Positions 28,141 through 57,743 of a stretch of DNA of 64,000 nucleotides are shown here, one piece after another. Position numbers and translations under genes: made by a program. The DNA lies in NCBI GenBank assembly GCA_945877135.1, contig CAMCQY010000003.1, forward strand, positions 6,506 through 70,505. The letters run 5' to 3'. The notes beneath the pieces were generated by a model. It had not been told where the DNA came from and made no database searches. It saw nothing but the letters and a program-made list of their open reading frames with translations. The DNA comes from Candidatus Kuenenia stuttgartensis (GTDB lineage Bacteria; Planctomycetota; Planctomycetia; Pirellulales; UBA1268). The stretch's first letter is position 1. Every line of letters starts with the position of its first letter.

Positions 28141-29259
28141 ATGTTCGTCCATAAGGAACAACTCGAGTACGTCCTCGGGCCGGACGACTACCTCTCTCCG
28201 GAAATCCATCGGAGCGAGGTCGAGCGGCTGTTTCTGTCCGCCTGGCACCCCGTGGCGGTCGCCTCCGACCTGTCACGCGAGGGCGATTTTGCGACGCTCG
28301 AAATCCTCGGCCGGCCCATCCAACTACGCAGGATCGACGGTGTTCTTCGCGCCTACCTGAATGTCTGCTCGCACCGCCACTGCCTGCTGACGGACCTTTC
28401 CCGCGGGAATGCCCCGCGGATCGTCTGCCAGTATCACGGCTGGGAGTATGCCGCAGACGGCAAGGTCGCGAAGGTGCCCGATGGCGGCTGTTTCAAGCCC
28501 TTCGACAGGGAGAATGCGCGGCTCCAGACGTTTTCGGTGGAGACGTGCGGCGAACTGGTCTTCGTGCGGATCGCAGCGGATGGCCCCACGCTCCGTGATC
28601 ATCTGGGAGAGTGGTTCGACCGTGTCGCGGCAGCATTCGCCGCCCCCTACAAGTGCAACTGGCGGTACGCGAGCAATTTCACGTGTAACTGGAAGATCCC
28701 GGTCGAGAACACGGTCGAGACCTACCACCTGCCCTACATCCATCCGACCACGCTCGGTGGCTTCGGACTGATTCCGGAAGAGGCGCAGAAGCACTATTTG
28801 GAGAACCGTTCCACGACGCTCGTCTACGACCTTGGCCACGACAGCGAGCCGGTGAAGAAGCAGCGGCAGGTGGTGGGCTGGCTCGGCGGCGGCACGACGA
28901 CCGACCAATACGTCCACCACCATATCTTCCCAAACCTCGTGTTCACGTTCTCCGACCTGTTCACCTATGCGCAGGTCTATCTGCCGACCAGCCCTACGAC
29001 CTCCTCAACCCTGGCGTGGATGTTCAGCCTCGACGGCACGAAGCGAAACCCGTTCGCCCGCGTGATCGCCCGGCTGGCCGCGAGGCATGGCGTGCAGGCC
29101 AACTCCGCCATCCAGCGGGAGGATGCGAGTGTCTTCGCGGCCCAGCAGCGGGGCCTTGCCGCCACGCCCTTCAAGGGCTGCATCGGCACCCGCGAGGAGC
29201 GGATCTGGTGCTTTCACCAGTACCTGCGATCGTCATGCGGCGATTCGCCAGCCGACTAG
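28141..29259 (+). CDS. Rieske [2Fe-2S] non-heme-iron oxygenase, alpha-subunit type
   Basis: CSHRHCLL...CQYHGWEY is the Rieske CxH...CxxH pattern. The catalytic domain carries NWKIPVENTVETYHLPYIHP (iron His pair). No reductase or ferredoxin partner is adjacent. Confidence 0.9.
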   Translation: MFVHKEQLEYVLGPDDYLSPEIHRSEVERLFLSAWHPVAVASDLSREGDFATLEILGRPIQLRRIDGVLRAYLNVCSHRHCLLTDLSRGNAPRIVCQYHGWEYAADGKVAKVPDGGCFKPFDRENARLQTFSVETCGELVFVRIAADGPTLRDHLGEWFDRVAAAFAAPYKCNWRYASNFTCNWKIPVENTVETYHLPYIHPTTLGGFGLIPEEAQKHYLENRSTTLVYDLGHDSEPVKKQRQVVGWLGGGTTTDQYVHHHIFPNLVFTFSDLFTYAQVYLPTSPTTSSTLAWMFSLDGTKRNPFARVIARLAARHGVQANSAIQREDASVFAAQQRGLAATPFKGCIGTREERIWCFHQYLRSSCGDSPAD

Positions 29260-29272
29260 TCGGAGAAGCACG

Positions 29273-30802
29273 CTAGGCGTTGGCGAGAGACACCGGCCGC
29301 GAGGCGAGCCAGCTGATCATGTCGACCGCCAGACGACGGCCCGCAGGGTCGTCCGCCTCGATGGCGAGTTCGCCACGGCCACACAGCTCGGCGGCCGCAA
29401 CCCTGCCTGCGAGAAGCCGCTCCAACGATTCCGCAGCCAGCCAGACCGTCGGAACCGACGGCGCGGGCAGGCCGACGTGAAGCGACACAGGCAGGCCATG
29501 TTCTAGGGCGACCGTCCACTGTCCGCCGCCGGCTCCGCTGGCCGCGAGGCCGACCGTGGAGGCCGATCGCGGCGCCGACCAGGTAGCCGGCCCGAGCACC
29601 CCTTCGATCGCGGCCCTCGGAGTCGACTGCCCCGCTTCGCGGCCCGGCGGCGGCCAGCGGAAGTTGTTGCCGATCGCGAACCGGCAGAGGCGGCGAATCG
29701 TCTCCTCGTCGAGGGCTGGCGCCGGCAGACCCGGCACGGCGCGGTGCGTGTTCGTGGTGTCAAACCGCGGGTCATCACGCCAATAGGCCTTGTAGACATG
29801 CATCTGGTCGAGGAACAGCTTGCCGAGCGTGAGCGGGTCGAAGGCGGCCGCGGGCTTCGGACCGGGGGATCCAGGAACCGCGAGTGCCTCCCGCTTCCGC
29901 TTCAGTTCGGCGGCCATCTCCACGACCAGGCCCTCGAACACACGGCAGAGCGTGCCGACGCTCGTGGGCGCATCGGATGTCAGGTGGTACGTCCGACCGT
30001 GGAGCGACTCGTCGAGGATGATCCGCGTCATCACGGCCGACACCCAATCGACCGGGACAAGGTTCTTGCATTCCGTCCCGGTCATGCCAAGCACGTCGAG
30101 GAGCGAGCCGGGCTCCATTTCCGCGCCGACGAAAGCCTGCACGAAGGGCTGCACGATCCGCAGCGGCTTATAAAAGCCGTGGAACGTGTTCGTGAAGCCG
30201 TTGACGAGGTCGCCGACGATGATGCTGGGGCGGTGGACGGTGCAGACCTCGAGCCATTCGGCCCCCGTGGCCTCCGCCTCCGAAGTGATCTTGCTGCGTT
30301 CGTAGTCATTGCCGGGGGTCTGGCCGACGTCGAGCTCGCTCTCCAAGATTTGCCCCTGCCGCAGGCCGCAGACATACGCGCTCGACACATGGTGCAGCCG
30401 GCGGATGCCGGTGTCGCGACAGAGCGCCAGCATGTTCCGGGTGCCCGTGACATTGCTCGTGTAGGGCTCGCCGTCCGACTCGCGGAGCTGGAACGACAGG
30501 CTGGCGGCCGAGTGGATCACCTCGCAGACATTCCCCGCGACCCACGACCGCTGTTCGGCCGTGAGCCCGAGCCCGTCCGCGGACAGGTCACCCTCGAGCA
30601 CCACCGGAGACGGCACGTCGACGCTGGCCACCTCACGCCAGTCGGCAAGCAGTTCGTCGACACGTTCCGCGGCACCGGCGGTCTTCGAACCGCGAACGAT
30701 CACGGCTATGCGGCGGCCGGCTGCGGCGAGATCGCGGAGCAGCGACCGGCCGAGCAGGCCGGTCGCACCAGTGAGAAGGATATAGGAATCGTGACTTGGC
30801 AT
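29273..30802 (-). CDS. Stand-alone thioester/acyl reductase (terminal R-domain type SDR) with an SCP2-like C-terminal domain
   Basis: Carries ILLTGATGLLGRSLLRDL (NAD(P) site), EVIHSAASLSF and YERSK (YxxxK). The C-terminal 130 aa includes LLAGRVAAAELCGRGELAIEADD, which resembles the SCP2 pattern. Last gene of the PKS operon, 5 nt after the previous stop. Confidence 0.85.
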   Translation of the reverse strand: MPSHDSYILLTGATGLLGRSLLRDLAAAGRRIAVIVRGSKTAGAAERVDELLADWREVASVDVPSPVVLEGDLSADGLGLTAEQRSWVAGNVCEVIHSAASLSFQLRESDGEPYTSNVTGTRNMLALCRDTGIRRLHHVSSAYVCGLRQGQILESELDVGQTPGNDYERSKITSEAEATGAEWLEVCTVHRPSIIVGDLVNGFTNTFHGFYKPLRIVQPFVQAFVGAEMEPGSLLDVLGMTGTECKNLVPVDWVSAVMTRIILDESLHGRTYHLTSDAPTSVGTLCRVFEGLVVEMAAELKRKREALAVPGSPGPKPAAAFDPLTLGKLFLDQMHVYKAYWRDDPRFDTTNTHRAVPGLPAPALDEETIRRLCRFAIGNNFRWPPPGREAGQSTPRAAIEGVLGPATWSAPRSASTVGLAASGAGGGQWTVALEHGLPVSLHVGLPAPSVPTVWLAAESLERLLAGRVAAAELCGRGELAIEADDPAGRRLAVDMISWLASRPVSLANA

Positions 30803-30807
30803 ACGTG

Positions 30808-31572
30808 TCAGACGTGGATGGCGGCTCCTCCATCGACGACGAGCGTCTGTCCCTGCACAAGATCAGAGAGCGGGCTGGAGAGAAAGAGCACGGCATCGGC
30901 CACGTCGGCCGCCTCGAGCATCCGTTCGCCCATCATCGTCTTGTATTGGCGTCCGGCGAACATCTCGGCGGCGCCGGGGAGCCGCTTGGTCGAGTCGGTC
31001 TCCACGAGCCCCGCCTCGACGACGTTGACATTCACACCGCGATCGCCCAGCTCAAGCGCCCAGTGTCTGGCCAAGGCTGTCAGCGCCGCCTTCGAGCCGC
31101 CGATGAGGCCATACATCGGCAGCGCCATGTGCGTGCCATGACTGGAGAGCACAACGGCCTTGCCCCGACCCGGGGCCGACTCGAGCAACGGCGCTGCGGC
31201 CTTCAGCAGATAGACGAACGACAGAACGTTCGTGTGCATCGCCGCGTCGAAATGCCGTTGTGTGGTGGCGGCCAGCGGACGGAACCCGCCAGTGGCCGCG
31301 TTGTGGACGAGGATGTCGAGCCGGCCGAATTCCTGTTTGATGAAGCCGACCATGTCGTCGACATCTTCCTCCTGACCGACGTCGGCCCGCACGCAGGCGA
31401 CGTGCCGCCCCATGGCGGCGATCTGTGCGGCGACTTCATCGGCTTCGCGGCCGCTGGTGACGTAGTTGACGACGATGTCGGCGCCCGCTTCGGCGAGGCG
31501 AAGGGCACAGGCCCGGCCGATGCCGCGGCTGGAGCCGGTGACAAGGGCGACCTTTCCGGTGAGATCGATCAT
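30808..31572 (-). CDS. FabL-like enoyl-[ACP] reductase (SDR family)
   Basis: [30 protein letters not shown] and [13 protein letters not shown] parallel B. subtilis FabL ([41 protein letters not shown], from memory). The active site spacing is Y-x6-K (YGLIGGSK), the enoyl-reductase type. ATG at 31572 overlaps the PPTase stop. Confidence 0.8.
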   Translation of the reverse strand: [254 protein letters not shown]

Positions 31573-32261
31573 GGGCGATAAGCCTCCGGGAAACGTGTTT
31601 GAGACTGGAGAAGGGCACGCCGGGCAGGGGTGGCCGCGACGGCGACGATGTGCCTGTTGATGCCGATGAAACACCCCGTGCCACGGACATCGGCGAAACG
31701 ATCCTGCGCGATCCATGCGAAGCCCGCGGCCGACAGGTCGCGAATGGTCACCGTCCTGGGCCGAAACTCGCTATCGAGATGGGCCGCCTTGTAGGCGGCC
31801 TCCTTGGCGGCCCAGAGCAGCGCCCGCAAGAGACCATGCTCGTCAGGCATCAGCGACAGTTCGTCGGGCGTGAACCACGCATCGAGACCACGTCCAGCCT
31901 CAGCAGGATCGACGATGTCGAGTCCCACCCCCGCGCTGTCGCAGAGGGCAGCGCCAACCAGACCCTGCAGGTGCGAAATCGAGACCGACACCCGCGTCGG
32001 GATTCCGTCGACGAGCACGATGGGCCGACCCGACGGCATGACTGTCGCAAGACGCACGGCATCGAGGTCGCGATCGAGGTGTGCGGCCGCGAGTTCCTCG
32101 GCCAGGCAAGCAGCCTGCCGGGACAACGACATTTCTGAATCCCGGGGTGGCGTCACAAACACGGCGTCGACGCTCCACGGCCCCACCCCCACCCGGCGGC
32201 TGATCGGCTCCTTCGCAAGGCTACGTCCGGCGGCGACCGGCTCCACTGTCTCGCTGATCAT
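31569..32261 (-). CDS. 4'-phosphopantetheinyl transferase
   Basis: Carries VGLDIV (first PPTase motif region) and LLWAAKEAAYKA (W/F-x3-KE-A/S-x2-K). About 230 aa, Sfp-type size. Start overlaps the PKS stop (ATGA, 32258-32261). Confidence 0.8.
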   Translation of the reverse strand: MISETVEPVAAGRSLAKEPISRRVGVGPWSVDAVFVTPPRDSEMSLSRQAACLAEELAAAHLDRDLDAVRLATVMPSGRPIVLVDGIPTRVSVSISHLQGLVGAALCDSAGVGLDIVDPAEAGRGLDAWFTPDELSLMPDEHGLLRALLWAAKEAAYKAAHLDSEFRPRTVTIRDLSAAGFAWIAQDRFADVRGTGCFIGINRHIVAVAATPARRALLQSQTRFPEAYRP

Positions 32262-35200
32262 GACGACCGACTCCGTTCGGCAGCCATGACGGCCAGGTGC
32301 AACCCGTCGAGGGCGAGAACAGCACGACCGTCATCGCCATACAGCACGAGGTCATAGATGCTTTCCCGCGAGTCCTGCGACCGGAAGCGAAGCCGTGCGA
32401 CGCACTTCTCGCCGCCCCGCGGCGGCGACACGATCCGCAACCGCTCGAACGCCACGGGCACCTCGACGCGACGGCCGCAGAGAATATAGGAGTAGACCGC
32501 ACACGCTACGACGCAGCCGTCGAGGAGCGCAACGGGCACCGTCCAGCCCATCGGACCACGAGGCAGGGTCACGCCATCTCCGTGCTGCGACACAAGCCGC
32601 CCCCAGCCGCCGCTGCGGTCGAGGAACAGGCCATCGAGCGTGCGGAAGGAAGGGCCGTGCCGCAGCGGTGCATCTTCCTGGTAAACCATCGGATTGAACG
32701 GGAATGGCGACTCATCCAGCGTCGCGGCGACCGGCTCCACGAGCCCAGCGAACACCTTGCATCGAAGATGCACCCGCTCCTCCCCGGCAGTGCGGCCTTC
32801 GGCGTTGAGCACCGCCGCCCAGCCTTGGGCGACAATCGTGTCACCGTCGCGTTCGCCGATTTCCACGCGAACATCCCGTGGAGCATCGACGGGGAATCCG
32901 ATCGGCCGCTCGACGGCAAAATCGCGAATCTCCTGCACGTGGCCACACGCCCCGGCGGCGACCACGGCCTGCGCTAGGAGTTCAGCCCCCATGACGGCAG
33001 GCAGAAGCGGCCGCCCGTACTGCAGGTGGTCGATCAGAAACCGGTCGCTCGTTGGATCAAGCCGGAACGACACCCATGTGCTGGCTCCCTGCCGCTCAAC
33101 CCCGCCCACGAGGCTCCCCACATCGCCTCTCGGCCGTGGCACGTGACCGGCTGCCCCCGCGGCAGCCGTGCTCTTTGAGACGGTGGTCGCGGGGGCGGCG
33201 TCGCGATTGACGTCGGCGGACGAGACCGCGTCTGGGCACATCGCTGGCTCGGTGACAAGCACCTCCGCATCCGGCAGCCCCGCCTCGATCTCGTCCATGA
33301 ACCGTCGCACCCCCTCGGCAAGCGGCATGAACTTGAGGCCGAACTGCTCCAGCACGAACCGGCTCTCCGGTCGGCTCGCCATGCCGACCTCGTCCCAGGC
33401 ATGCCAGTGGAACACCGTCGCACGCAGCCCGCGCCGCTGCCGAAGCTGCCCAAGCATTTTGGCGAGCATGTCGTTGGCAAGCGAATAGTCGGCTTGGCCA
33501 TGGCCGCCGAGGCGACCGCTCGTTGAGCCGAAGCCGACGATGGCCTCGAGCGTGGCCGGATCGACCGCCGCCACCAGGTGCTCGAGGCCAGCACACTTGG
33601 GGCCGAGCGTCGCCTCCAGGCCGTCGACGGTCTTCTTTTCGAACCGGCACGCCGCCTCGAACCCGGCACCGTGCACGATGCCGCGAACCGGCCCGACATC
33701 CCGGGCGATCGCGTGGACGAGCGTCCTCACAGCAGCCGCGTCTGAAAGATTGCAGGCGAAATACTTCGCATCCACTCCCGCCGTCTTGAACTTGGCCAGT
33801 GACTTCCCAATTTCGATCGACTTCTCGACCATTCTCCAGGCTGTCCGTGGATCGCTCCCGCGGGCCTTCGCGTCGAGCATCATGCGGCCCTTGAGATCGC
33901 GGAGTCCGGCTTCGTCGAGTGACAGCCATGCCTGCTCCACGGCGACCGGTGCCGTCGAGCCAACCAGCGCGAGCTTCAGCCCGAACCTTCTACCCAGTTC
34001 CCGCGCGCATTCGGCCGTCACGCCTCGTGCGCCACCGGTCACGACCCATGCACTCCCATGCCGCAGTGACTCAAGCGCCGTGCTCGCGGCCGGTCTGGTC
34101 TCGCAGGCTGCGATCGTGACACGCCGCCCGTCGACGAGGCCAACTTCCACTGGCCCGACTCCGTCCTGCATCTCGGCCACGATGCCAGCCGCGAGTGCTG
34201 TCTCTGCCAACGCCGCCGCCGCATCCACCACGCGGACATGCAGGCTGGAAAACTCGCGGGCGATCCCTTTGAAGAGTCCCGCCATCGCACCACCCACCAC
34301 CGAGTCGATGGCACCTGAGAGCCCAAAATCACCGCCGAGGTGTGCAACCGTCGTCAGGGTCGCGGAGCCGATGTCGTTGGCCTTGCCGCGCAGCACGAGC
34401 CACCGCTGGCAGGCGAAGAACGGCGCAACAACCGTCGCCGACCGCCTCGAGAGCCAGTCGCCGGCGGTCTGCTGTCGAGGCGTGGCCACGACAAGGTGCC
34501 GCACGGGCCCGCCCGCCTCTGCTCGCTCGACGGCTGCGATCGCCTCCTCGGCAGAACTGCATTCCAAGACAAACGGCTTCGCGCCCCGAGCGGTGAGCGT
34601 GGCAGCGAGTGCACCGGCCAGGCTGCCACTCCCCAGGATCAGCACACGTTCGCCACTGAGGCTGCGTGCCGATCGAGCCGAACCAGCATCGCGGAGAGCG
34701 AGGCGATAGCGGCGAGTGATCTGTTCCACCCTTCCATGGCTCTTGCCGGCCGCCAGCGAAGCGTCCCGCGGGACGGTCAGCCACGCCTCACCAACAGGAT
34801 CAGTGGCCACGGCCGCAAGCCAGTCGCGACCGGCCGGTCCACCCGCGCGAAGAGCGGGTTTCCCTGCGGCTGAGCCGACGGCCATCCACGCGCACGTCGC
34901 CGAGAGCGATGCTCCGGTTCCAGCGGGGTCCAGCAGCAGCGACGAAAGGGCCTGCTCCGGTACGACCGTGCCGTCGGCCAGTGCCACGCGGGCCAGGGCC
35001 GCACGTGGATCACACTGCTGAAAGACCTGGGGAAGTGCCACGATCTTTCCGGTAGCCGATACCTCTATCCCACCGCCACGGACGTTGGCCACGATGAGGC
35101 CGTAAGGCCGCGTCGCCATCCGCGCGATCATCGCATCCGCCTCCGCCATCGACCGGCACTCCGTCACCACCCGTTCGACCGCGCCAGCCACCGAGGCATT

Positions 35201-38200
35201 CCTCACGTTCTCGCGGCTGATCGTCGCGACGAGGCCCGAGTCATTCCAGCCGACGATCGCTCCCGGCAACCCCTTCACGCTCACCAGCGTGCCGCGCAGC
35301 TCATGGGTCTCGAAGCGTTTCGCGGCGGGATCGGCGTTGCGGCCGAAGCAGACGAGCAGTCCGCGGGCGATGGCACCGGCATCAGTCGGCGCCACGATCA
35401 CCGCGTCGCAGCCGCCAACCGCCGCCGCCGGATCGGTGTACGCGGCCCGAACGATGTCAACTTCAATGCCTGCCCCCTCGGCAATGCCGGCGAGCTCCTT
35501 GTCGATAGCTGGATCGATCACGACTGGCCTGGTAGACGCCCCCTCGGCCGCGATCTGCCTCGCCCAGAGCCTGATGGCCGCGGCGTGTTCTCGGCCGTTT
35601 CGGAGGCCTCGCTCGAAGTCCTCGCTACGGGTTCCATGCGACCCAGTCAGCACCGCCGGCCCCGATGCCGACTTCGCGCTCACGCGGGGCACCATATAAC
35701 CGAGCAGGTGGCGCAGCGTTGGGAACTCGTCGAGCGACACGCTGTCATCAGCAGTCAGCCCGTACTTCTGCCCGATCTCACCGAAGAGCTGCGCCTTGCG
35801 GATGCTGTCGATCCCAAGGTCCGCCTCCAGATCCGCATCGAGTTCCACGATCTCCCGCGGGTATCCCGTCTGCTCCACCACGAAGTCGGTCAGGAACGTT
35901 TCCAGTTCCGTCGCCAGACCGTCGTCGGCTGCAGTTGGAGACACTGGTTTCGGAGCAGCCGCTGCCGTTCGCGGGGCGTGATCGTTGCTGGCGTGTCCGT
36001 TGGTACCGTGACCACTCGCTGGCACAGCAGACGACTTGGCCGCCGTGGCTGCCGGCGACACAGACTTCCCGCCCACACGGGGCAGCATGTAATCGAGCAG
36101 GTGACGCAGCGTAGGAAACTCGTCGAGCGACACGCTGTCGTCGGCTGTCAGCCCATACTTCTGACCAATCTCGCCGAAGAGTTGCGCCTTGCGGATGCTA
36201 TCGATCCCGAGATCCGCCTCCAAGTCCGCATGGAGTTCAACGATCTCACGCGGATAGCCTGTCTGCTCCACCACGAATTCGATCAGAAACGCTTCCAGTT
36301 CCGTTGCCAGGCCGGAATCGTCTGCCACCGGAGCGGCGGGCGCCCCTGATTGAGCATGGCCGTTCTGAGCATGGCCGTTCACCTGAATGGCAGACGGCTG
36401 GGCCAACGCGGCCGCAGGTGGAGCAGACTTTCCGCCGACGCGGGGCAGCATATAGCCGAGCAGGTGGCGCAGCGTTGGGAACTCGTCGAGCGACACGCTG
36501 TCATCAGCGGTCAGCCCGTACTTCTGCCCGATCTCACCAAAGAGCTGCGCCTTGCGGATGCTGTCGATCCCAAGGTCCGCCTCCAGATCCGCATCGATTT
36601 CCACGATCTCTCGCGGATACCCCGTCTGCTCCACGACGAAGTCGATCAGAAAGGTCTCGACCTCGGCGGCTGCAGGCCCCTCCTCCTTCGACCGCCGCGA
36701 CAGCCATCTCGCCTTGCCGCCCGAACGTGCCAGCACATCAGCGATGGCATCACGCGATGCTGCCGAAAGGATGGCCGCATGATCGCCCGCGGTGATTTCA
36801 AACAGGTGCGTCGCGCTGTCAAGGAATGCCTGCACGCCTCGGCTCGCCGCTCCTGCCCGCATAAGTGGTGGTTCGACGCCCGCTTCAGCGAGTAGTTCGG
36901 AAACTACGTCTTCCAGACACCCGACATCTGCCTCCGCGGTCGTCTGCTCCTTCGCGATGGCTGTCAGCCGATGCGTCGGCTTTGCCTCCAGTTCCAGCAA
37001 CTGCGTCGTGGCCGCGGCAGGCTGCAACGTCGGAGACTTACGATGCTCATGCCCACTGCTGTGACCGTTGCTTTGCCCATTCCCGTTGTGCCCGACCTCT
37101 TCATGTGTCGCCAACTCGACTGGTCTCGCAGTGCCACGATGGGCGGCTCCTCCCGACCGGTTGCGTTCCCGTCGGCGTGCCGTCGCATCGAACGACACGA
37201 TCCGTCCTGGCTGCACTGGCTGCACTGGCCGTTCTGGCTGTCGTGGCTTCGACGGCACCTCGACACTCTGCCCCGACTCACCACTGCCGAGCGCGCCCGC
37301 CGCCGCGAGTTGCTCTCGCAGTCGAGCGAGATGCTCCAGCGGCGAACGGCCGCGTTGATCGAATTGCAGGAAGGTGACGCCCTCGCGGCCCTCCAGAATT
37401 CGCCGTGTGAGGCCAGTGAGCACTCCCGACGGCCCCACTTCCACGAATGTCCTCGCGCCCGACTCATAGAGCTTCTCGACGACGCCCACCCAGCGGACCG
37501 TCTCGGTCATCTGACGAATCAGGCTTTCCTGGATGTCGGCCGGACCGCCCAGAGCAGAGGTCGTGGTGCTGCTAAACGTCGTGATCTGCGGTGCCGCGAT
37601 CGACAGCGAGTGAATCGTGGCCGAGAGGCGCTCTGCCGCCGATGCCAACAGAGGCGTATGGAACGGGCTTGGCACGGCGAGCCGTTTCGATTTGACCCGG
37701 CGCGAGTCGAGAATCACCTCGACGGCATCGACAATCCGCGCCGTGCCACCCACCACGAACTGCTCAGGGGCGTTTTCCGCGCAGATCCACACCTGCCCGA
37801 CAAAGGGTTCGATCGCCGCCATCACCGTCGCCCGATCCGCGATCACCGAGAGCATGGCGCCGTTCCGCGGACCATGCCGCTCCACGGCGTCGGCACGGGC
37901 GATCGTGGCTCGCGCGCCGTCACCAATGCTCCAGGCCCCAACCGCAGCCAGCGCGGGAAACTCCCCGAAACTGTGACTGGCGACGATGTCGGGCACGAAC
38001 CCCATCCCCTGCAGCACACCCCACGCGAGCAGGTCGCCCAGATACATCGCCCACTGCGTATCCCAGATCCTCGTGCCCAGTCCATTTGCGGGCTGCCAGG
38101 CGATGTCGGAGAGTGTCTCCCGACCCTGGGTTCGCGCCAGACGATCGAGTCGGGTAAGCACGCTCCGCGCCTCACCCGATTCCTCGACGAGTTCGCGAAA

Positions 38201-41185
38201 CATGTCGGTGTATTGGGACCCCTGCCCGGGGAAGATCGCGGCTACGAGCGGCTTGCGGCTGGCGTGTGCCCCTGATCCCGCTGGCTGCGGCGCACGGATG
38301 GCCTCGACCGCCGATGCCGACCGTGCGGTCTGAGGCGGAGCCGCCTGGGGCACCGGCAGGCCGTTATCGAGCACCAGATGTCCCGCCTGACGCCCATGGA
38401 TCACCGTCACGCAACCCGCCCGGTAGCCGGCCGCATCCACGGCGCCGAGTGGACAGGCTGAGGCCGACGCTGCGAGCCACTGCACGTTCGACCGAACATC
38501 GTTCACAGCAACCGACCCTGGCATGATCCCGGTGGCCAAGGCATGCGTGAGCTTCAGGATTGCAGCCGCACCGGCCGCAGCGCCCGCATGGCCGATTTGG
38601 CCATCAAGCGAGCCCGCCACGGTCGACCGCGATACCGACTGCTTCGCTGCGGCAGGCTGCTTCACGTAGTGTCCGCCGAGAATCGTAAGCTCTTCACCGC
38701 TGTTCTTGTGCCCCGCGGCAACCGCCACTTCGAACGCCTTCACGGCGGCAGGATCGATCGCCGCCTTCTCGCAGGCGTCGCGGACGACCCGTCTGGTCGC
38801 CTCCGGGCCAGTCCGGCCCGAGCCCACAGCCACACCGCGGATCACGCCGCGAATCCTGTTTCCTGCCGCGCGGGCGTCGGCGAGTCGCTTGAGGACAATG
38901 ACCACGGCGCCTTCGCCCGGCACGTCGCCTCCCTGTGGCTGGCCATTCAACACGGAAGTCGGCCGGTTCGCCAGAAAGCCGCCGAGCGAACGGCCCTCAT
39001 AGGCCATCAGGTCCATGCAGCGTTCCCCCGCCGCGCAGAGCACGGCATCGCAGGCCCGCTCGCGGAGCATGTCGATGGCCGCCGAGATCGCCGAGAGGCT
39101 TGAACAGTCGCCCGAATCGAGCGAGAGCGCCCCGCCCATGAGGTCAAACGTCTTCGTCAGCCGGCTTGCGAGCGTGCTGCTGGTGAAACTGCCCGTCTCA
39201 TCGACCAGCGCCGGCAACCGTTCGAGAAGCTTCTTTTCATACGACGCGACAATGCGATCGATGTCGGTCGGTGCTACGCCGCGGCGAGCCAGCGACGCCC
39301 GTAGATAAACACCCGTTTCAGGAAGCCGGAGCCCCTGCTGCAGTTGGTTGGCGAAGTCGCCGCCAAAGAGCGTGCCCACGACGACGCCCGTGCGGGTGCG
39401 GTCGAGGCCGGCCTGAGCGCCACCCGCGTCGGCAATCGCCGCGTCGGCTGCCTCCAGCAGCATGAACTGCAGCGGATTCGCCGCGGCGATCTGCTTGGGT
39501 GGCACCTTGTGCCGACGCCAGTCGTAGTTGAAGTCGCGGACGAATCCGCCGATATTCGACATCGTGTGCCAGGGCTGCGGACGCGATGGATCCAACACCC
39601 GCTCGGCATTCCAGCGGTCTGCGGGCACCGGCCCGATGGCGGTCTCGCCGCGGCCGAGCAGATCGAAGAACGAGTCGAGCGTAAGCGCACCGGGCAGCAC
39701 ACAGCCTGAACCGATGATGGCGATCGCGTCGGCGTCGTCATCGATGGGGAGCGTCACCGACGACCGCGTCTCGAGCCGCTTCGCTGAGGCATATTCGGCG
39801 AGAGAGACGTGCACATTGAGACCGCCGATGCCAAATGCGTTCACGGCCGCGCACCGCGGCGAGCCATCGGCATGGGCAGGCCACGGAAGCGGTGCCTTCG
39901 GCACTGAGAAGGGGCCATTTTTCCAGTCGAATTCGCTGTTCAATTCATCGCAAGTCGAGCCGGGCGGAATCTGGCCGTGCTCCATCGCAAGCACCACCTT
40001 CACAAGGCTGGCGATGCCTGCCGTCTCCAGCGTGTGGCCGATGTTGGCTTTCACGCTACCGATCGGGATCTGCCTGCCGGCAGGCAGGTGCTTCGCCATC
40101 AGCCCCGACAGCGCGCCAAGCTCGGTGGCATCCCCCACCTGCGTACTCGTGGCGTGGGCCTCGATGTATTCAATCCGACCGATGTCGGCCGCATCTGGAT
40201 AGGCTCGCTCGATCGCCAGAACCTGCCCCTCCTGCCGGGGCGCCCAGAGGCTCTTTCCCTTGCCATCGCTGGCCACCCCGAGTCCTCGAATCACCGCGCG
40301 AATGCGATCGCCATCGGCGATCGCCCGGGAGAGCGTCTTGATGACGAGCGCCACGTAGCCCTCGGCTGTGATCAGGCCGTCGGCGGCCTCGCCAAATGGG
40401 CAGGAACCGGCGTTGCTCACCGACTGGGCCGCCGAGAAGAGCACAAGGCTGTCCGACTTGCAGTAGGAGGCTCCCCCGACGATCGCCTGATCGATGCCCC
40501 CCTGGAGGAGCGCCCGGGCGCCGATCGCCATGGCCTGCAGCGACGAGGCGCAGGCGGCATCCACCACAAGATAGGGACCGTCGAGTTTGAGCGCCTCCTG
40601 CACGATCTTCGCAGCGCCGATCGCCCCGAGGTCGAGCGTGTCGCCCGGCTTCCGCCCGGGATACCGCTTTCTGACGGCCGCAGTCACCTCGGCACTGACA
40701 GCGTCCACTTCCTCACCAAGAATCGCCCGGGCCGCGTCCACCTCGGAAAGCAGTGCCGCCGTCTCGTCGATGCCGGTCGCATAGACGATGTCGCCGATCT
40801 TGGTGCTGCCGCCGGTGTGGCCGACGTAGACACCGGTCCTGCGATCGTCAGGCATCGCGAAGGGATCCATGCCGGCATCGCGGCATGCCAGCGACGCCAC
40901 TTCGAGAAAGATATGGTGGGCGACGTCGTAGTCCCGGAACATCTCAGGAGTGATCGGGCAGACCGCCGGATCCACTGGCCGGTCGGAAACGACGGCACCC
41001 ATCTCGGAATAGCTCTTGCCGACCCGACTCTTCTCCGGGTGGAAATAGAGGTCACGGGAAAAACGTGACTCAGGCAGGGGGCCCCAGGCCGTCCGGCCCT
41101 CCGCCACCAGCCGCCAAAATGCATCGAGACCATCAGCGCCCGGGAGTCGGCATGCCATGCCGACAATTGCCAGCGAGTCCTTCAA
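32258..41185 (-). CDS. PfaA-like type I polyketide / secondary-lipid synthase: KS, KS-like, AT, ACP x3, Ntn(C45)-like segment, KR, DH
   Basis: Residue numbers are computed from the nucleotide positions. KS1: DAACASS (Cys212, 40550-40552), EAHATST, NIGHT. KS2: DSGDCSSL (Cys694, 39104-39106), QIGHAGAAAG. AT: FPGQGSQ, SHSFGE (Ser1072, 37970-37972). ACPs: LGIDSIRK x3 (Ser1542, 1663, 1794). KR: VVTGGARGVT (about residue 2383). DH: HLQYGRPLLP (His2720, the HxxxGxxxxP motif). Confidence 0.97.
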   Translation of the reverse strand: MKDSLAIVGMACRLPGADGLDAFWRLVAEGRTAWGPLPESRFSRDLYFHPEKSRVGKSYSEMGAVVSDRPVDPAVCPITPEMFRDYDVAHHIFLEVASLACRDAGMDPFAMPDDRRTGVYVGHTGGSTKIGDIVYATGIDETAALLSEVDAARAILGEEVDAVSAEVTAAVRKRYPGRKPGDTLDLGAIGAAKIVQEALKLDGPYLVVDAACASSLQAMAIGARALLQGGIDQAIVGGASYCKSDSLVLFSAAQSVSNAGSCPFGEAADGLITAEGYVALVIKTLSRAIADGDRIRAVIRGLGVASDGKGKSLWAPRQEGQVLAIERAYPDAADIGRIEYIEAHATSTQVGDATELGALSGLMAKHLPAGRQIPIGSVKANIGHTLETAGIASLVKVVLAMEHGQIPPGSTCDELNSEFDWKNGPFSVPKAPLPWPAHADGSPRCAAVNAFGIGGLNVHVSLAEYASAKRLETRSSVTLPIDDDADAIAIIGSGCVLPGALTLDSFFDLLGRGETAIGPVPADRWNAERVLDPSRPQPWHTMSNIGGFVRDFNYDWRRHKVPPKQIAAANPLQFMLLEAADAAIADAGGAQAGLDRTRTGVVVGTLFGGDFANQLQQGLRLPETGVYLRASLARRGVAPTDIDRIVASYEKKLLERLPALVDETGSFTSSTLASRLTKTFDLMGGALSLDSGDCSSLSAISAAIDMLRERACDAVLCAAGERCMDLMAYEGRSLGGFLANRPTSVLNGQPQGGDVPGEGAVVIVLKRLADARAAGNRIRGVIRGVAVGSGRTGPEATRRVVRDACEKAAIDPAAVKAFEVAVAAGHKNSGEELTILGGHYVKQPAAAKQSVSRSTVAGSLDGQIGHAGAAAGAAAILKLTHALATGIMPGSVAVNDVRSNVQWLAASASACPLGAVDAAGYRAGCVTVIHGRQAGHLVLDNGLPVPQAAPPQTARSASAVEAIRAPQPAGSGAHASRKPLVAAIFPGQGSQYTDMFRELVEESGEARSVLTRLDRLARTQGRETLSDIAWQPANGLGTRIWDTQWAMYLGDLLAWGVLQGMGFVPDIVASHSFGEFPALAAVGAWSIGDGARATIARADAVERHGPRNGAMLSVIADRATVMAAIEPFVGQVWICAENAPEQFVVGGTARIVDAVEVILDSRRVKSKRLAVPSPFHTPLLASAAERLSATIHSLSIAAPQITTFSSTTTSALGGPADIQESLIRQMTETVRWVGVVEKLYESGARTFVEVGPSGVLTGLTRRILEGREGVTFLQFDQRGRSPLEHLARLREQLAAAGALGSGESGQSVEVPSKPRQPERPVQPVQPGRIVSFDATARRRERNRSGGAAHRGTARPVELATHEEVGHNGNGQSNGHSSGHEHRKSPTLQPAAATTQLLELEAKPTHRLTAIAKEQTTAEADVGCLEDVVSELLAEAGVEPPLMRAGAASRGVQAFLDSATHLFEITAGDHAAILSAASRDAIADVLARSGGKARWLSRRSKEEGPAAAEVETFLIDFVVEQTGYPREIVEIDADLEADLGIDSIRKAQLFGEIGQKYGLTADDSVSLDEFPTLRHLLGYMLPRVGGKSAPPAAALAQPSAIQVNGHAQNGHAQSGAPAAPVADDSGLATELEAFLIEFVVEQTGYPREIVELHADLEADLGIDSIRKAQLFGEIGQKYGLTADDSVSLDEFPTLRHLLDYMLPRVGGKSVSPAATAAKSSAVPASGHGTNGHASNDHAPRTAAAAPKPVSPTAADDGLATELETFLTDFVVEQTGYPREIVELDADLEADLGIDSIRKAQLFGEIGQKYGLTADDSVSLDEFPTLRHLLGYMVPRVSAKSASGPAVLTGSHGTRSEDFERGLRNGREHAAAIRLWARQIAAEGASTRPVVIDPAIDKELAGIAEGAGIEVDIVRAAYTDPAAAVGGCDAVIVAPTDAGAIARGLLVCFGRNADPAAKRFETHELRGTLVSVKGLPGAIVGWNDSGLVATISRENVRNASVAGAVERVVTECRSMAEADAMIARMATRPYGLIVANVRGGGIEVSATGKIVALPQVFQQCDPRAALARVALADGTVVPEQALSSLLLDPAGTGASLSATCAWMAVGSAAGKPALRAGGPAGRDWLAAVATDPVGEAWLTVPRDASLAAGKSHGRVEQITRRYRLALRDAGSARSARSLSGERVLILGSGSLAGALAATLTARGAKPFVLECSSAEEAIAAVERAEAGGPVRHLVVATPRQQTAGDWLSRRSATVVAPFFACQRWLVLRGKANDIGSATLTTVAHLGGDFGLSGAIDSVVGGAMAGLFKGIAREFSSLHVRVVDAAAALAETALAAGIVAEMQDGVGPVEVGLVDGRRVTIAACETRPAASTALESLRHGSAWVVTGGARGVTAECARELGRRFGLKLALVGSTAPVAVEQAWLSLDEAGLRDLKGRMMLDAKARGSDPRTAWRMVEKSIEIGKSLAKFKTAGVDAKYFACNLSDAAAVRTLVHAIARDVGPVRGIVHGAGFEAACRFEKKTVDGLEATLGPKCAGLEHLVAAVDPATLEAIVGFGSTSGRLGGHGQADYSLANDMLAKMLGQLRQRRGLRATVFHWHAWDEVGMASRPESRFVLEQFGLKFMPLAEGVRRFMDEIEAGLPDAEVLVTEPAMCPDAVSSADVNRDAAPATTVSKSTAAAGAAGHVPRPRGDVGSLVGGVERQGASTWVSFRLDPTSDRFLIDHLQYGRPLLPAVMGAELLAQAVVAAGACGHVQEIRDFAVERPIGFPVDAPRDVRVEIGERDGDTIVAQGWAAVLNAEGRTAGEERVHLRCKVFAGLVEPVAATLDESPFPFNPMVYQEDAPLRHGPSFRTLDGLFLDRSGGWGRLVSQHGDGVTLPRGPMGWTVPVALLDGCVVACAVYSYILCGRRVEVPVAFERLRIVSPPRGGEKCVARLRFRSQDSRESIYDLVLYGDDGRAVLALDGLHLAVMAAERSRSS
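35665..36675 (-). repeat. Three tandem near-identical ACP-coding repeats inside the PKS gene
   Basis: Repeat periods are 363 and 393 nt (Ser codons at 36560, 36197 and 35804). Core peptide: GYPREIVE..ADLEADLGIDSIRKAQLFGEIGQKYGLTADDSVSLDEFPTLRHLL. By eye, copies 1 and 3 are more alike at the DNA level than either is to copy 2. Confidence 0.9.
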
Positions 41186-41518
41186 AGTCGTCGTCCTTGT
41201 CGTCTGCTAGGTGTGCCAGCGACTCCCCCACGAACAACGCGTGAAAACGCGTCGACGGCGCGGCCTGCACCGGGGGCGAGTCGCATATCAAGAAAAGGGA
41301 TGGGGTTATACGAGTCAGTTCGCCTTGGCGAAAAACGACCCATCCTTGGGAGATGCCGGGCGACGGGCGTGAGCCCAACCGCCGGCTGCCGACGCTCGCA
41401 GTATGCTCGCGCGAACGCGAGTGTCAACAATTTTGGCCGGACGGGGCCAAGAGTCTTTGGTGGCAATTGCTGGGTAGATTCGCGGTTCCGGGATGGCGAA
41501 GGTATCTTCGAAGCCGCC

Positions 41519-42919
41519 ATGGACGCCCCTTCCGGACACCCCCCTGCCGCCAAGCCGGCCAATTCCGCGGCCGGATGCCCATTGACGCCGTTCGAACAGC
41601 TGATGCTCATCGACGACCGGCCTGGTCACCCGATGTGCTTCTTCTTGGAATGTATGGTCGACGGTCCACTCCAGGAAAACCGCCTGCGGGAGGCGGTTGA
41701 GACGGCGTCCCGACGGCACCCGCTCCTCTGTAGCCGGGTAGCCTTCCACGGGTCCCGGCCAGTTTGGCTCGATGCCGACGTGCTGCCGACGGTGATCTGG
41801 AACCCCCCCGAACAAGGCGGCGACACATGGCGGCCTTTCGACCTGCGTCGCGAGAGCGGCATGAGGATCGTGGTGCTCGGCGACGGAGAAAACCGGCATC
41901 GGGTGGTCTTCCAGGTGCATCATGCGACCTGCGACGGCGTGGCTGGCTGCGAGTTTGCCGGAGACATCTGGGCGGTGTATGCCGGCATCGAGCCGAGAGC
42001 GTTTTCTCAGCCACCGGTTGCGCGGATCAAACCAACCGCACAAAACACTCCGGAGTCACCAGCGGCCAGCGATGGCCAGGGCGCGGCGACGGAGGCTCGG
42101 AAGTTTGTCAGCTTTTGGCCCACGCCCCTCGCTGGCATGACAACCAGCGGGCCTGGGCAGGGGGCAGGAGATGCGGGCGTCACGTGCGATCCACGGTCGC
42201 CCCCCTACATGTGGATCGAGTTCACCCCCGCTTCCACGGAGCGCCTGCGGACGGCTGCGTCAGCGGACGGCGTTTCGCTCAATGACTGCATTGTTGCCGC
42301 GGTGATGCGGGCGGTACTCGCGTGGAACGCCCGCGCCGGCCGCCCGGCGGCCAATGTGCGGGTCACCATGCCCGTCAACCTCCGTCAGCCCGGGCAGCGG
42401 GAGCCTGCGAACAACAACCTCGGGTATGCATTTCTCGATCGCACCGCGGCACAGTGCACCGATCCAAAGTCGTTGACGGCATCGATTGCATCTGCGACTC
42501 GCTGGATCCTCGACCACAACGCCGCGGCTTTTTTTCTCCGTGCCATCCACTCCCTCACCCGCTGGCCCTGGCTGCTCACACTCGCGACCCGGCTGCCGCT
42601 CTGTGTCTCGACCGTCGTCGTGAGCAATATCGGTGACCCCAGCCGACGGATGCGGTCCGGGGTTGGCAAGTTCGACGGCCGCGATGCACCGGGCGATCTT
42701 GTGATTCAAGGCTTTCTCGGCGTGCCGCCCCTGCGGCCACGAACGCGGGCGACAATTGGTGTCACCACGTATGCGGGCCGACTGTCGCTCTGTTGCCTCT
42801 GCTCCGCCCACCCAAGCCCGCACGAGGCCGCCCGGTTGTTTCTCGATCTCGTCCGGCAGGAACTCGAGGAGATCATGGCCGGCAGCACGGCAACTTCCCC
42901 CGCCCTGCCCACGCCGTGA
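41519..42919 (+). CDS. Condensation-domain / WS-DGAT-like acyltransferase (HHxxxDG)
   Basis: The ATG at 41519 (MDAPSGHPPAAKP) is chosen because upstream codons overlap the promoter region. Carries VFQVHHATCDGVAG (HHxxxDG catalytic motif) and NNLGYAF in the C-terminal half. Divergent from the PKS, with a 333-nt spacer. Confidence 0.7.
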   Translation: MDAPSGHPPAAKPANSAAGCPLTPFEQLMLIDDRPGHPMCFFLECMVDGPLQENRLREAVETASRRHPLLCSRVAFHGSRPVWLDADVLPTVIWNPPEQGGDTWRPFDLRRESGMRIVVLGDGENRHRVVFQVHHATCDGVAGCEFAGDIWAVYAGIEPRAFSQPPVARIKPTAQNTPESPAASDGQGAATEARKFVSFWPTPLAGMTTSGPGQGAGDAGVTCDPRSPPYMWIEFTPASTERLRTAASADGVSLNDCIVAAVMRAVLAWNARAGRPAANVRVTMPVNLRQPGQREPANNNLGYAFLDRTAAQCTDPKSLTASIASATRWILDHNAAAFFLRAIHSLTRWPWLLTLATRLPLCVSTVVVSNIGDPSRRMRSGVGKFDGRDAPGDLVIQGFLGVPPLRPRTRATIGVTTYAGRLSLCCLCSAHPSPHEAARLFLDLVRQELEEIMAGSTATSPALPTP

Positions 42920-44920: not shown

Positions 44921-45497
44921 CGACTCAGGCCGCCTGACGACGAGCAGGAACGACACGTGCATACACCTGCATTGCCGTGCCGATGGCGGCCACGGCATCG
45001 AACGCGCTGATCTCTCCCAGATCGAAGGCCTCGGTCGCGGCCTTGACTTCGGCCATCGTCATGATCGCACACGTCGCCAGCGACACAGTCTCGTTCGGTA
45101 CCACGGCACACTCCTTCATAAGAACCATCCCCGATCTCAATACCAAGCTCGCTGCCTGGCGTGGGGGACTGATACAGAACTGTCGTCGCTCGGGTATTTC
45201 ACGATGCGATCACCGGAGTGCCCGTCTCTTCCGTGTACGACATCCTCTCACCACCACTCCGACGCTCCGACAGCCTGATTTTCATCTGTCACGACACGAT
45301 CACGAAAGCTCATCTCAGCCGTGACGGCGACTCGTCACCACTTCACAGGCGACCAAGGGTGCCGAGTTGAAGCCGACGGGGGGCGACTTTTTTGACTCAA
45401 TCGGTCACGCTCTACGGATGCATCGTTCCGTTCAGGGTCGATCTTGAGGGGGCCGCCCGCTGGAACGAGTGTGCCTGCCCCCATTCCGGAGCACGCC

Positions 45498-47442
<1,945 letters not shown>

Positions 47443-51557: not shown

Positions 51558-51631
51558 CCGGGGATGGTAGCGGGGGCCAACCCGTGGCACCAAGCGTGTT
51601 TTGCAGCCGAAAAACGACGGTTTCCAGCCTC

Positions 51632-57185: not shown

Positions 57186-57743
57186 ATGACGCTTCAACAG
57201 GATACACATCTTCTGTCTGGCCCGCCTGCGGCACCGCAGACCCTGCGATCGAAAACCGCCCGCGCGGCGGCGGGCGACAAACTCAGCCAACTCGTGGAGG
57301 TCCACGAGACGCACGTCGGCCGGGGGGTATTCGCCCGGCGGAAGCTCAAGGCGGCCATGGTGCTCGGCGAAATCCTCGGCCAGATTTTTCCGGTGGAGCC
57401 TGAGGATCCGAGCTATTGCATGGAATTGCCCAGTGGTATGGTGCTGGAGCCGTCCGCTCCGCTGCGATTCCTAAACCACAGTTGCGATCCGAACTGCGAG
57501 CTTTTCTATTGGTTTGATGAAGAGGACGGAAGCCTTCAGGAAGACCGGCTGTGGCTGCAAACGATTCGTTCGATCAACGCGGGCGACGAGCTGCTGATCG
57601 ACTATTGCTGGCCGGCCGACGCGGCGATCCCGTGCCGCTGCGGGGTGCCGGACTGCCGGGGCTGGATCGTCGATCCGGAGGAGTTGCACCTCCTGCCGAA
57701 GACCGCTGGCGATTCTTCGCCGCAGTCGCCGTCGGCCTCCTGA
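57186..57743 (+). CDS. SET-domain protein (putative lysine methyltransferase)
   Basis: Carries GRGVFARRKL, RFLNHSCDPNCE (NHSC motif), ELLIDYCW (ELxxDY) and a C-terminal Cys cluster CRCGVPDCRGW (post-SET-like). ATG at 57186. Confidence 0.85.
   Translation: MTLQQDTHLLSGPPAAPQTLRSKTARAAAGDKLSQLVEVHETHVGRGVFARRKLKAAMVLGEILGQIFPVEPEDPSYCMELPSGMVLEPSAPLRFLNHSCDPNCELFYWFDEEDGSLQEDRLWLQTIRSINAGDELLIDYCWPADAAIPCRCGVPDCRGWIVDPEELHLLPKTAGDSSPQSPSAS

Follow-up and report, generated by a model that had tools for sequence, protein, structure and literature searches.

What would a synthase resembling those of polyunsaturated fatty acids (PUFA) make when it is encoded with a phosphopantetheinyl transferase (PPTase), an enoyl reductase (ER) and a thioester reductase (TR) of its own, and not with the usual PUFA partners? 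This question is raised by a locus in a 64-kb stretch of DNA (hereafter, the window: contig CAMCQY010000003.1 of assembly GCA_945877135.1, forward strand, positions 6,506 to 70,505), in which the gene for a type I fatty acid synthase/polyketide synthase (FAS/PKS; hereafter, the PKS) is followed by those three genes, and the gene for a condensation-fold acyltransferase (CAT) is transcribed divergently. Our answer, to which we would assign a probability of about 0.6, is that the locus is a self-contained "secondary lipid" operon organized around an iterative, PUFA-synthase-like PKS with reductive release of its product. It draws on the identities of genes and domains, the catalytic motifs, the packing of the operon and its co-conservation, all of which were observed directly. 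Coordinates, open reading frames (ORFs) and third-position GC statistics were computed over the window, whose positions are used throughout; the ORFs and the GC statistics support all five genes.

Pfam domain calls on the 2975-aa PKS agreed with the order proposed in a preliminary description of the locus, namely a ketosynthase (KS), a second KS-like region, an acyltransferase (AT), three acyl carrier proteins (ACPs), a region X, a ketoreductase (KR) and a dehydratase (DH). Residues 3-720 are collinear with the crystal structure of the KS-chain length factor (CLF) portion of Moritella PfaC (6RIW; E = 3.8e-65 for the full sequence and 7.6e-59 for that stretch), and thus the KS-CLF half of PfaC is fused into the synthase, which is composed of a PfaC-type KS-CLF and a PfaA-type AT-ACP3-KR-DH. 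The best NCBIfam family was PfaA (TIGR02813), matched in six separate stretches with 754 bits against a cut-off of 1010, such that the PfaA equivalog level was not reached.

We compared the PKS with its relatives in a genome scan using one genome per species, which yielded approximately 77 loci, all from metagenome-assembled genomes (MAGs). The active-site Cys of the first KS (KS1) was kept in 37 of 37 loci. The second (KS2), which matches the KS family when scanned alone (5.5e-40), retains its Cys (GDCSS) and its second His and carries Ala at the position of the first His; over the related loci, this pattern was found for the Cys in 42/43, for the Ala in 19/20 and for the second His in 35/35. 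The Cys of KS2 is lost in three larger homologues of 3.7 thousand residues (kaa), P0095, P0103 and P0104. The ACP motifs are located at residues 1538, 1659 and 1790, and such tandem, near-identical ACPs are a hallmark of PUFA-type iterative synthases. The dehydratase domains of the PKS are solely of the PS-DH type (PF14765 and PF21089, spanning residues 2704-2971), with the His present in 58 of 58 loci, and no FabA-type DH/isomerase was detected among them. At least 7327 homologues of the PKS were found at E<=1e-20 among 8000 candidates scored, and all those bearing an organism name among the 120 best are planctomycetal.

Region X was characterized using a profile built from 11 X segments, which matched the PDB entry 3GVZ (7.9e-5) and isopenicillin-N acyltransferase (2X1C, 2e-4). 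PF03417 was matched by 8 of the 11 segments, with 1.2e-7 as the best value and a weak match (0.0085) for the segment of the window. Those matches point to a degenerate peptidase-C45/acyl-CoA:6-APA acyltransferase-like domain of the Ntn-hydrolase family. As the column of the candidate nucleophile holds Cys in only 21 of 52 loci and Phe, Leu, Ile or Trp in 29 of 52, the domain is probably non-catalytic and structural, or it acts in another way. A search of 1.84 billion representative sequences with the profile returned 533 proteins at E<=1e-10. Many of these measure 2-3.6 kaa and have the domain near their middle, and some are stand-alone proteins of about 350 aa; the named examples are "type I polyketide synthases" of Pirellulaceae. 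Our literature search for a C45 domain in PKSs yielded no description of such a PKS domain.

No gene for PfaB, PfaD or a FabA-type dehydratase was found in the 64 kb of the window. We also looked for them just outside the locus in four related loci with precomputed Pfam annotation (L078 to L081), three of them on contigs that range from 126 kb to 2.9 Mb in length and the fourth in the complete genome of Bythopirellula. No PfaD (NMO) or FabA-type hit was listed within 10 kb on either side of these four loci, and PfaB was not among their listed flank genes. Three recurrent flank families tried as candidates for PfaC or PfaD (c16, c20 and c24) were identified as glutamate synthase and a LysR regulator, and the other recurrent neighbour families in the 77 loci were accounted for. 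PfaB, PfaC and PfaD had all been described as lacking from the window; this holds for PfaB, PfaD and the FabA-type half of PfaC but not for the KS-CLF half of the latter, in view of the alignment with 6RIW. One might still regard the locus as an incomplete canonical PUFA synthase, whose PfaD and FabA-type half of PfaC would be encoded elsewhere in the genome and whose product would be a PUFA or a derived hydrocarbon precursor. PfaA is the top NCBIfam family, the KS-CLF pair is PfaC-like, and pfa-like clusters together with ole genes are described for some planctomycetes in published work (PMC3098273). Nevertheless, the PfaA score falls well below its cut-off, neither of the two genes appears in the window or among the listed flanks, the sole dehydratase is PKS-type with no isomerising FabA-like domain, and the operon brings a different ER of its own and a reductive release enzyme, neither of which is used by PUFA synthases. 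We consider this explanation very improbable.

Reductive release and acyl transfer are the natural reading of TR and CAT. TR matched TIGR01746 with 101 bits, under the cut-off of 213, which is a superfamily-level match, and its TGxxGxxG motif and Y167-x3-K171 were invariant in 36 orthologues. Its AlphaFold2 model (pLDDT 83.4) was closest in Foldseek to the R domain of MxaA (myxalamid), a PKS thioreductase of Streptomyces coelicolor, the R domain of carboxylic acid reductase (CAR) and the rice fatty acyl reductase (FAR) DPW. With the motifs, the PF07993 match and the R-domain fold present, TR belongs to the terminal R-domain/FAR (NAD_binding_4) superfamily. Its C-terminal 110 residues were confidently modelled as an alpha/beta domain. 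In the window this tail has no Pfam match; among 20 orthologous tails, 11 matched SCP2_2 (PF13530, best 1.7e-5), and 5 matched PF02036. A profile of the tail gave no SCP2 match among PDB sequences, and the Foldseek search with the whole model was dominated by the Rossmann domain, such that the tail is assigned at the sequence level and would be SCP2-like at the level of the family only. Thus, of the stand-alone TR with an SCP2-like tail in the preliminary description, the TR was confirmed by PF07993 and by the model, and the tail holds for the orthologous family but not for the copy in the window.

The best NCBIfam match of ER was FabL (NF005975; 2.3e-75, 253 bits, under the cut-off of 328), its best solved structure was FabL of Bacillus subtilis (3OIC, 185 bits, the next one having 130), and the catalytic dyad Y-x6-K is seen in its sequence (Y-GLIGGS-K). 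The earlier proposal of a FabL-like enoyl reductase was thus supported by profile and by structure. The PPTase gave a single ACPS match (PF01648, 3.8e-8, residues 111-178), no NCBIfam match and no match among PDB sequences. That match supports a PPTase; its further assignment to the Sfp type, made earlier, is drawn from size, the length of 230 aa being compatible with that type.

CAT matched PapA_C (1.1e-8), Condensation (7e-6), TIGR02946 (5e-16) and PapA5 (NF006787, 2e-11), in all cases under the cut-offs, and the specific families were not reached (43 bits against 396 for PapA5 and 58.6 against 310 for WS/DGAT). H135, D139 and G140 were invariant in 37 homologues. The AlphaFold2 model (pLDDT 87.8) shows a complete two-lobed condensation fold, for which Foldseek returned condensation (C) domains of non-ribosomal peptide synthetases (NRPS), PapA5 (1Q9J, TMt 0.69) and SgcC5, with a probability of 1.0 for many C domains and PapA5. 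With its HHxxxDG motif and this fold, CAT belongs to the PapA5/WS-DGAT/NRPS-C condensation superfamily. NRPS C domains, PapA5 and SgcC5 use acyl donors bound to carrier proteins. The CAT family is small, with only 244 members at E<=1e-5, two of which (P0218 and P0239) are fused to an LCM-type O-methyltransferase.

The four minus-strand genes are tightly packed, as the preliminary description had it. We read the junctions directly from the sequence: PKS and PPTase (TCATGATC) and PPTase and ER (CCATGATC) share ATGA overlaps, and ER and TR are separated by a gap of 5 nt (TGAcacgtATG). The two overlaps predict translational coupling in an operon. The divergent position of the HHxxxDG enzyme was likewise found as described, with 333 nt between the start of CAT and that of PKS. 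The GC content of the window varies from approximately 0.62 to 0.71 per 2-kb block, and the composition at the locus matches that of the flanks, with no break. The coordinates are collected in Table 1.

Table 1. Features of the locus in window coordinates.
Feature	Position	Strand	Size, residues or support
Rieske non-haem-iron oxygenase, alpha subunit	28141-29259	(+)	Rieske 1.4e-18; Ring_hydroxyl_A 1.3e-24
TR, thioester reductase	29273-30802	(-)	509 aa
TR domain and tail	29303-29620 (tail)	(-)	domain residues 1-390, tail residues ~395-500; PF07993 2.2e-36; TIGR01746 5.9e-29
ER, FabL-like enoyl reductase	30808-31572	(-)	254 aa
PPTase	31569-32261	(-)	230 aa
PKS, PUFA-synthase-like	32258-41185	(-)	2975 aa, TTG start; KS - CLF-like KS2 - AT - ACPx3 - C45/AAT-like X - psiKR/KR - PS-DH (Pfam domains)
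PS-DH, PKS-type dehydratase	32273-33088	(-)	residues ~2700-2971; HxxxGxxxxP; PF21089, PF14765
Structural psiKR and catalytic KR	33386-34720	(-)	residues ~2156-2600; PF08659 5.5e-27 at residues 2380-2599
Domain X, putative C45/AAT-like (Ntn-hydrolase family)	34736-35623	(-)	residues ~1855-2150; profile of 11 X segments
Three tandem near-identical ACPs	35666-36643	(-)	LGIDSIRKAQ x3; PF00550 in 3 stretches
AT	37394-38236	(-)	residues 984-1264; SHSFGE active site; PF00698 1.3e-27; FabD TIGR00128 8.6e-46
KS2, chain-length-factor-like	38471-39727	(-)	residues ~487-905; collinear with 6RIW
KS1	39761-41176	(-)	residues 4-475; Cys/His/His present: VVDAACASS, EAHATST, KANIGHT
Divergent control region	41186-41518	.	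promoter 41400-41427 (-), then leader of ~210 nt to PKS start
Leader motif CCCAnGGATGGG	41339-41350	(-)	14-nt match CTCCCAAGGATGGG = 41339-41352
CAT, stand-alone condensation-fold (PapA5/WS-DGAT-like) HHxxxDG enzyme	41519-42919	(+)	466 aa; motif VHHATCDG
ASST-like (arylsulfotransferase-family beta-propeller) secreted protein	43064-44557	(+)	PF05935 6.3e-22

How these enzymes might work together was considered in the light of what is known of their families, from which all the following steps are drawn. The PPTase would convert the three tandem ACPs into their holo form, and the AT would load malonyl units. The PfaC-type KS-CLF pair would then extend the chain and set its length, each beta-carbon being processed by the KR and the PKS-type DH, and the FabL-like reductase would saturate the enoyl intermediates in trans, replacing PfaD. 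The ACP-bound long chain would be freed by the stand-alone, NAD(P)H-dependent TR in the form of an aldehyde or alcohol, and the lipid is probably held by the SCP2-like tail of this enzyme. In most genomes, CAT would acylate an alcohol or amine with an ACP-bound acyl donor, to give in the simplest case an ester like those of waxes or of phthiocerol dimycocerosate (PDIM). Tailoring might be performed by the neighbouring Rieske oxygenase and ASST-like protein and, elsewhere, by FkbM/LCM methyltransferases and a second TR. The product would probably be an envelope lipid. What is known of the families also underlies our view of the cellular role, the iterative use of the synthase, the length of the chain, the extent of its reduction (2 or 4 electrons) and the acceptor of CAT.

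Several observations weigh against this reading. The family scores of PKS, ER, TR and CAT are all below the curated NCBIfam cut-offs, such that their functions are superfamily-level assignments. Some orthologues of TR have no tail, L080 lacks the PPTase, and no CAT gene adjoins the synthase in a subclade composed of L041, L049 and L066. As CAT is thus not universal, the wax-ester-like product put forward in the preliminary description is one option only. ER is much more conserved than its neighbours and might take part in housekeeping fatty acid synthesis as well. The scheme assigns no role to the Cys-retaining CLF or to the C45-like domain, and a phenolic product would be equally in keeping with the neighbouring Rieske (ring-hydroxylating type), ASST-like and O-methyltransferase genes. 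The whole scheme for the family, product included, is predicted from sequences and models.

We then considered the distribution of the cassette. The 77 loci were nearly all labelled Planctomycetota or Pirellulales, and many came from lakes. The synteny across Planctomycetota genomes showed a recurring order in them, with CAT usually divergent from PKS, followed by PPTase, in some loci a Rieske gene and an FkbM methyltransferase gene, and then ER and TR. PKS-(PPTase)-ER-TR was kept wherever the contig reaches, 37 loci containing ER and 38 TR. In orthologous loci, the proteins were approximately 50-94% (PKS), 61-95% (TR), 38-93% (PPTase) and 36-94% (CAT) identical to those of the window. In the distant locus L075, the identity was 65% for ER, 40% for TR and 45% for PKS. 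As CAT is absent next to PKS in one subclade and PPTase, which follows PKS in most loci, is absent in L080, the invariant core consists of PKS, ER and TR. The cassette is vertically conserved throughout a freshwater Pirellulales clade. Ten of the contigs (L013, L017, L018, L023, L031, L045, L049, L050, L057 and L065) are labelled "Candidatus Kuenenia" and two (L066 and L070) Chitinophagaceae/Chitinophaga; they have the same cassette and gene order, with PKS identities of 52-87%. Since those labels do not fit the otherwise Pirellulales distribution, the taxonomy of these MAGs is probably mislabelled.

This vertical inheritance might also be expected of a housekeeping or envelope type I FAS, which would supply (very) long-chain or hydroxy acyl-ACP for lipid A or an amino-lipid, with CAT or another acyltransferase moving the acyl chain from the ACP to the acceptor, and TR serving a side or salvage function. 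Broad synteny with genes for RNase D, CitMHS, a HIT protein and glutamate synthase is consistent with this explanation, as are the base composition shared with the flanks and the conservation of ER, which is 84-100% identical to the window over the orthologous loci (L001-L074 and L076; 65% in L075 and 62% in Bythopirellula), also between loci whose synthases share only 50-75%; such a constraint would fit a second, housekeeping role. In the CAT-less subclade, a gene for a Kdo transferase (WaaA-like) is found just downstream of TR or of the ASST-like gene (21049-22407 in L041 and 15217-16479 in L049), a possible hint at a link with lipopolysaccharide, or a coincidence. However, this connection is made by two loci only, and TR accompanies PKS on every contig that continues far enough and is closely coupled to ER, which argues that reductive release is central rather than incidental. 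A housekeeping function of this kind appears unlikely to us.

The limits of the cluster itself probably need to be extended. Its core genes lie at 29273-42919, as described before, but its extent probably reaches the Rieske gene on one side and the ASST-like gene on the other. The Rieske gene is convergent with TR, their stop codons being 13 nt apart, and its orthologues (70-97% identity) adjoin the cassette despite differences in the other flanks, after TR in L064, L042 and L076 and by CAT in L010. In many loci, a Rieske paralogue of approximately 31% identity lies within the operon, between PPTase and ER. Orthologues of the ASST-like gene (56-68% identity) lie directly by a core gene, after CAT in the window and L013 and after TR in L012, L041 and L066. 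Adjacency alone would be weak evidence because the synteny of housekeeping genes is also extensive in the clade. The positions of these two genes shuffle while their adjacency to the core stays, which is a stronger argument, and both are thus probably accessory members of the cluster. Other genes join the cassette at variable positions: that of the FkbM methyltransferase and, after CAT in five loci, that of a second TR. A connection with sterol demethylation was rejected, as the Rieske protein and TR reached only 27 and 47 bits against SdmA/SdmB, with cut-offs of 600, a generic family resemblance.

These accessory genes are what would be expected if the product were a specialised polyketide not destined for the membrane, i.e., a partly reduced polyene or phenolic chain freed as an aldehyde, hydroxylated by the Rieske oxygenase, O-methylated by FkbM/LCM enzymes, sulfated or otherwise modified outside the cytoplasm by the ASST-like protein, and secreted. 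The in-operon Rieske paralogue and FkbM methyltransferase, the fusions of CAT with LCM enzymes in P0218 and P0239 and the secreted ASST-like protein all fit such a pathway, an AraC-family regulator is encoded nearby (45444-46352), and such loci are classed as T1PKS or hglE-KS clusters in genome papers. The dedicated and very conserved enoyl reductase within the operon speaks against this reading, and a KS-CLF combined with tandem ACPs is characteristic of fatty-chain (PUFA/hgl-type) synthases. Moreover, there is no cyclase, thioesterase or aromatase, and the tailoring genes are variable and lie outside the core. A secreted polyketide thus seems improbable, and we retain the lipid operon with reductive release.

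Comparison with known systems helps to place this operon. It resembles the PUFA synthases (PfaA-D/E) and the secondary lipid synthases surveyed by Shulse and Allen in 2011 (PMC3098273) by its PfaA-like AT-ACPn-KR-DH, its PfaC-like KS-CLF, its tandem ACPs, its dedicated PPTase and presumably its iterative chain building. It differs from them in that the KS-CLF is fused ahead of AT-ACPs-KR-DH in a single polypeptide, that the separate KS-AT of PfaA type, PfaB, the FabA-type DH/isomerase domains and PfaD are missing, and that it has a FabL-like trans-ER of the short-chain dehydrogenase/reductase (SDR) type, an additional C45-like domain and reductive release by a stand-alone TR. The two planctomycete entries cited from that survey, type I of Gemmata and type J of Planctomyces limnophilus, have architectures that differ from the cassette.

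Similarity to the synthesis of heterocyst glycolipids (Hgl) had also been noted in the preliminary description. The logic is the same, since it is established for Nostocales that PUFA-type KS/CLF chemistry is followed by release to a long-chain alcohol by a thioester reductase, and the hglE-KS rule of antiSMASH is known to fire on some Pirellulaceae loci. A product of this type would be a long-chain diol or keto-ol aglycone that is subsequently glycosylated. The gene content does not follow. The Hgl system consists of many separate proteins, and its TR, HglB, carries a fused ACP, whereas that of the cassette stands alone; the PfaD-type ER, the glycosyltransferase (HglT) and the DevBCA exporter have no counterparts in the cassette. 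Neither in the window nor in the four annotated loci are the core genes accompanied by a glycosyltransferase or a DevBCA-type exporter, and among related loci the Kdo transferase of L041 and L049 was the sole glycosyltransferase encountered. Hence, the resemblance holds for the logic but not for the genes, and a glycosylated product of this kind is hardly to be expected.

The mycobacterial Pks/PapA5/MmpL pathways for PDIM and sulfolipid provide another parallel, with a free-standing condensation-fold acyltransferase, similar in structure to CAT, encoded next to a type I synthase; the Bythopirellula version of the cluster also has AMP-binding (FAAL-like) and MMPL genes. In contrast with these pathways, CAT falls far short of the PapA5 cut-off and the synthase is PUFA-type rather than Mas/Pps-type. 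The MMPL gene of the window, 16 kb from the synthase, shows no link with the cassette, and its product is 24% identical to that of Bythopirellula. As for the wax-ester pathway of Marinobacter and Acinetobacter (FAR and WS/DGAT), the likeness lies in the production of a fatty alcohol by an NAD_binding_4 reductase and its esterification by an HHxxxDG acyltransferase, and the difference in the substrates, which in the cassette are probably ACP-bound and provided by a dedicated megasynthase, and in CAT itself, which is below the WS/DGAT cut-off and lies structurally among NRPS C domains.

The closest relatives are elaborated Pirellulales clusters with PKSs of 3.6-3.9 kaa, whose locus we examined in Bythopirellula goksoeyrii only. 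In this cultured strain (CP042913), a PKS homologue of 3731 aa, 45% identical to that of the window, is encoded between TR on one side and PPTase and ER on the other. The TR (38%, including the same tail), the ER (62%) and a CAT-like C-fold enzyme (29%) are also present, such that the homology to the window spans the full length of the TR(+tail)-PKS-PPTase-ER core and of the C-fold enzyme. The synthases of Bremerella and Blastopirellula marina are also 3.6-3.9 kaa long and contain the same embedded C45-like domain as the PKS of the window. The elaborated PKSs have additional ACP and KR-like regions, and their CLF lacks the Cys; the Bythopirellula cluster adds genes for an AMP-binding (FAAL-like) enzyme, an MMPL transporter, a luciferase-like/methyltransferase protein, an FAD oxidoreductase among other oxidoreductases, and ECH. 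The window thus represents a compact, freshwater-clade version of this cluster.

The control region between PKS and CAT was analysed as well. Its 333 nt have a mean column identity of 86% over loci whose CAT proteins share 67-94%, which exceeds the conservation of the surrounding genes. On the PKS strand, a sigma70-like promoter (TTGACA-16-CATACT, 41427-41400) agrees at 10 of 12 positions; the number of such sites expected from shuffled sequences is 0.0. Of the 40 loci with enough upstream sequence, 31 have a single copy of the invariant leader motif CCCAnGGATGGG, located 146-237 nt before the PKS start, and a CCATC(C) complement lies 24-35 nt downstream of it in most motif-bearing loci. The leader carries a conserved AAGGA ribosome-binding block; the block GACGACAAGGACGACGAC precedes the PKS start codon. 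The promoter and leader (41186-41427 (-) in the window) were found at the same position in L001, L004-L006, L008, L010-L013, L016, L017, L020, L022-L026, L028-L030, L032, L048, L051, L061, L064, L079 and L080.

An Rfam scan of the control region gave nothing above noise. A small hairpin of the leader covaries, and a structure-agnostic MAFFT alignment gave short hairpins only. In a covariance model built from close relatives, the element ended exactly at the PKS start in 15 loci and double changes were found in 33 of 55 pairs; the alignment is fitted to the model, on which the fuller fold depends. The single-sequence fold of the leader was modestly stable (z = -1.75). The PKS leader is therefore best described as a candidate cis-regulatory RNA or operator. 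The covarying hairpin may be enclosed by a GGAUGGG/CCCAUCC stem.

A more speculative proposal, which we hold to be unlikely, is that the Cys-retaining CLF and the C45/Ntn-like domain, both unprecedented in PUFA/hgl-type synthases, serve to make an envelope lipid of a class not yet described, and that expression of the locus is controlled by a new leader RNA or operator. In that case, these two elements might keep a second acyl chain or pass it on, for instance for an esterification from ACP to alcohol by CAT.

No characterised orthologue of the cassette was found in the searchable literature on PUFA and secondary lipids, thioester reductases, hglE-KS and planctomycete long-chain, wax or ether lipids. 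A 2025 review (PMC12673574) still lists the products of planctomycete type I PKSs as unknown, and recent genome papers give no product for them. The architecture had been considered uncharacterised as a whole; this stands in that no characterised orthologue was found, but it is no one-off, as it is clade-wide and has an elaborated version in a cultured strain. The Cys-retaining CLF, the embedded C45-like domain and the TR with a putative lipid-binding tail are the unusual parts of an otherwise conventional logic, the cassette being a variant of known machinery with ordinary predicted chemistry. Pirellulales are abundant in lakes and on algal surfaces, and the cassette is among the most conserved such loci in the freshwater clade. 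Given this high conservation and the larger homologue in culturable strains, the product is likely to be a significant and possibly diagnostic lipid. For enzymology, the locus offers a minimal PUFA-type synthase, in which one polypeptide carries KS-CLF, PfaD is replaced by a FabL-type trans-ER, and TR is a free enzyme whose tail may bind lipid. It also encodes an unannotated C45-like domain, which the profile detects in many multi-kiloresidue proteins.

Other genes of the window were also considered. The MMPL gene (57551-59998 (+)) encodes an MMPL/RND-type transporter with a sterol-sensing-like domain; it was rejected as a cluster member, being part of the general synteny in L079, where an MMPL gene also lies about 10 kb away. 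In Bythopirellula, the MMPL gene adjoins TR. A second SDR of the adh_short_C2 family (FabG/FabI-like) is encoded at 3973-4728 (-), 25 kb upstream and unlinked to the cassette. Lastly, an ORF of 1376 aa (47463-51593 (-)) has a coding-like composition and no Pfam domain. Counterparts of 40-83% identity occur in 10 loci, on the CAT side of the cassette. The ORF adjoins a small HIT-family gene in L079, L080 and L081, and in the window it adjoins an ORF with a C-terminal HIT domain (46501-47442).

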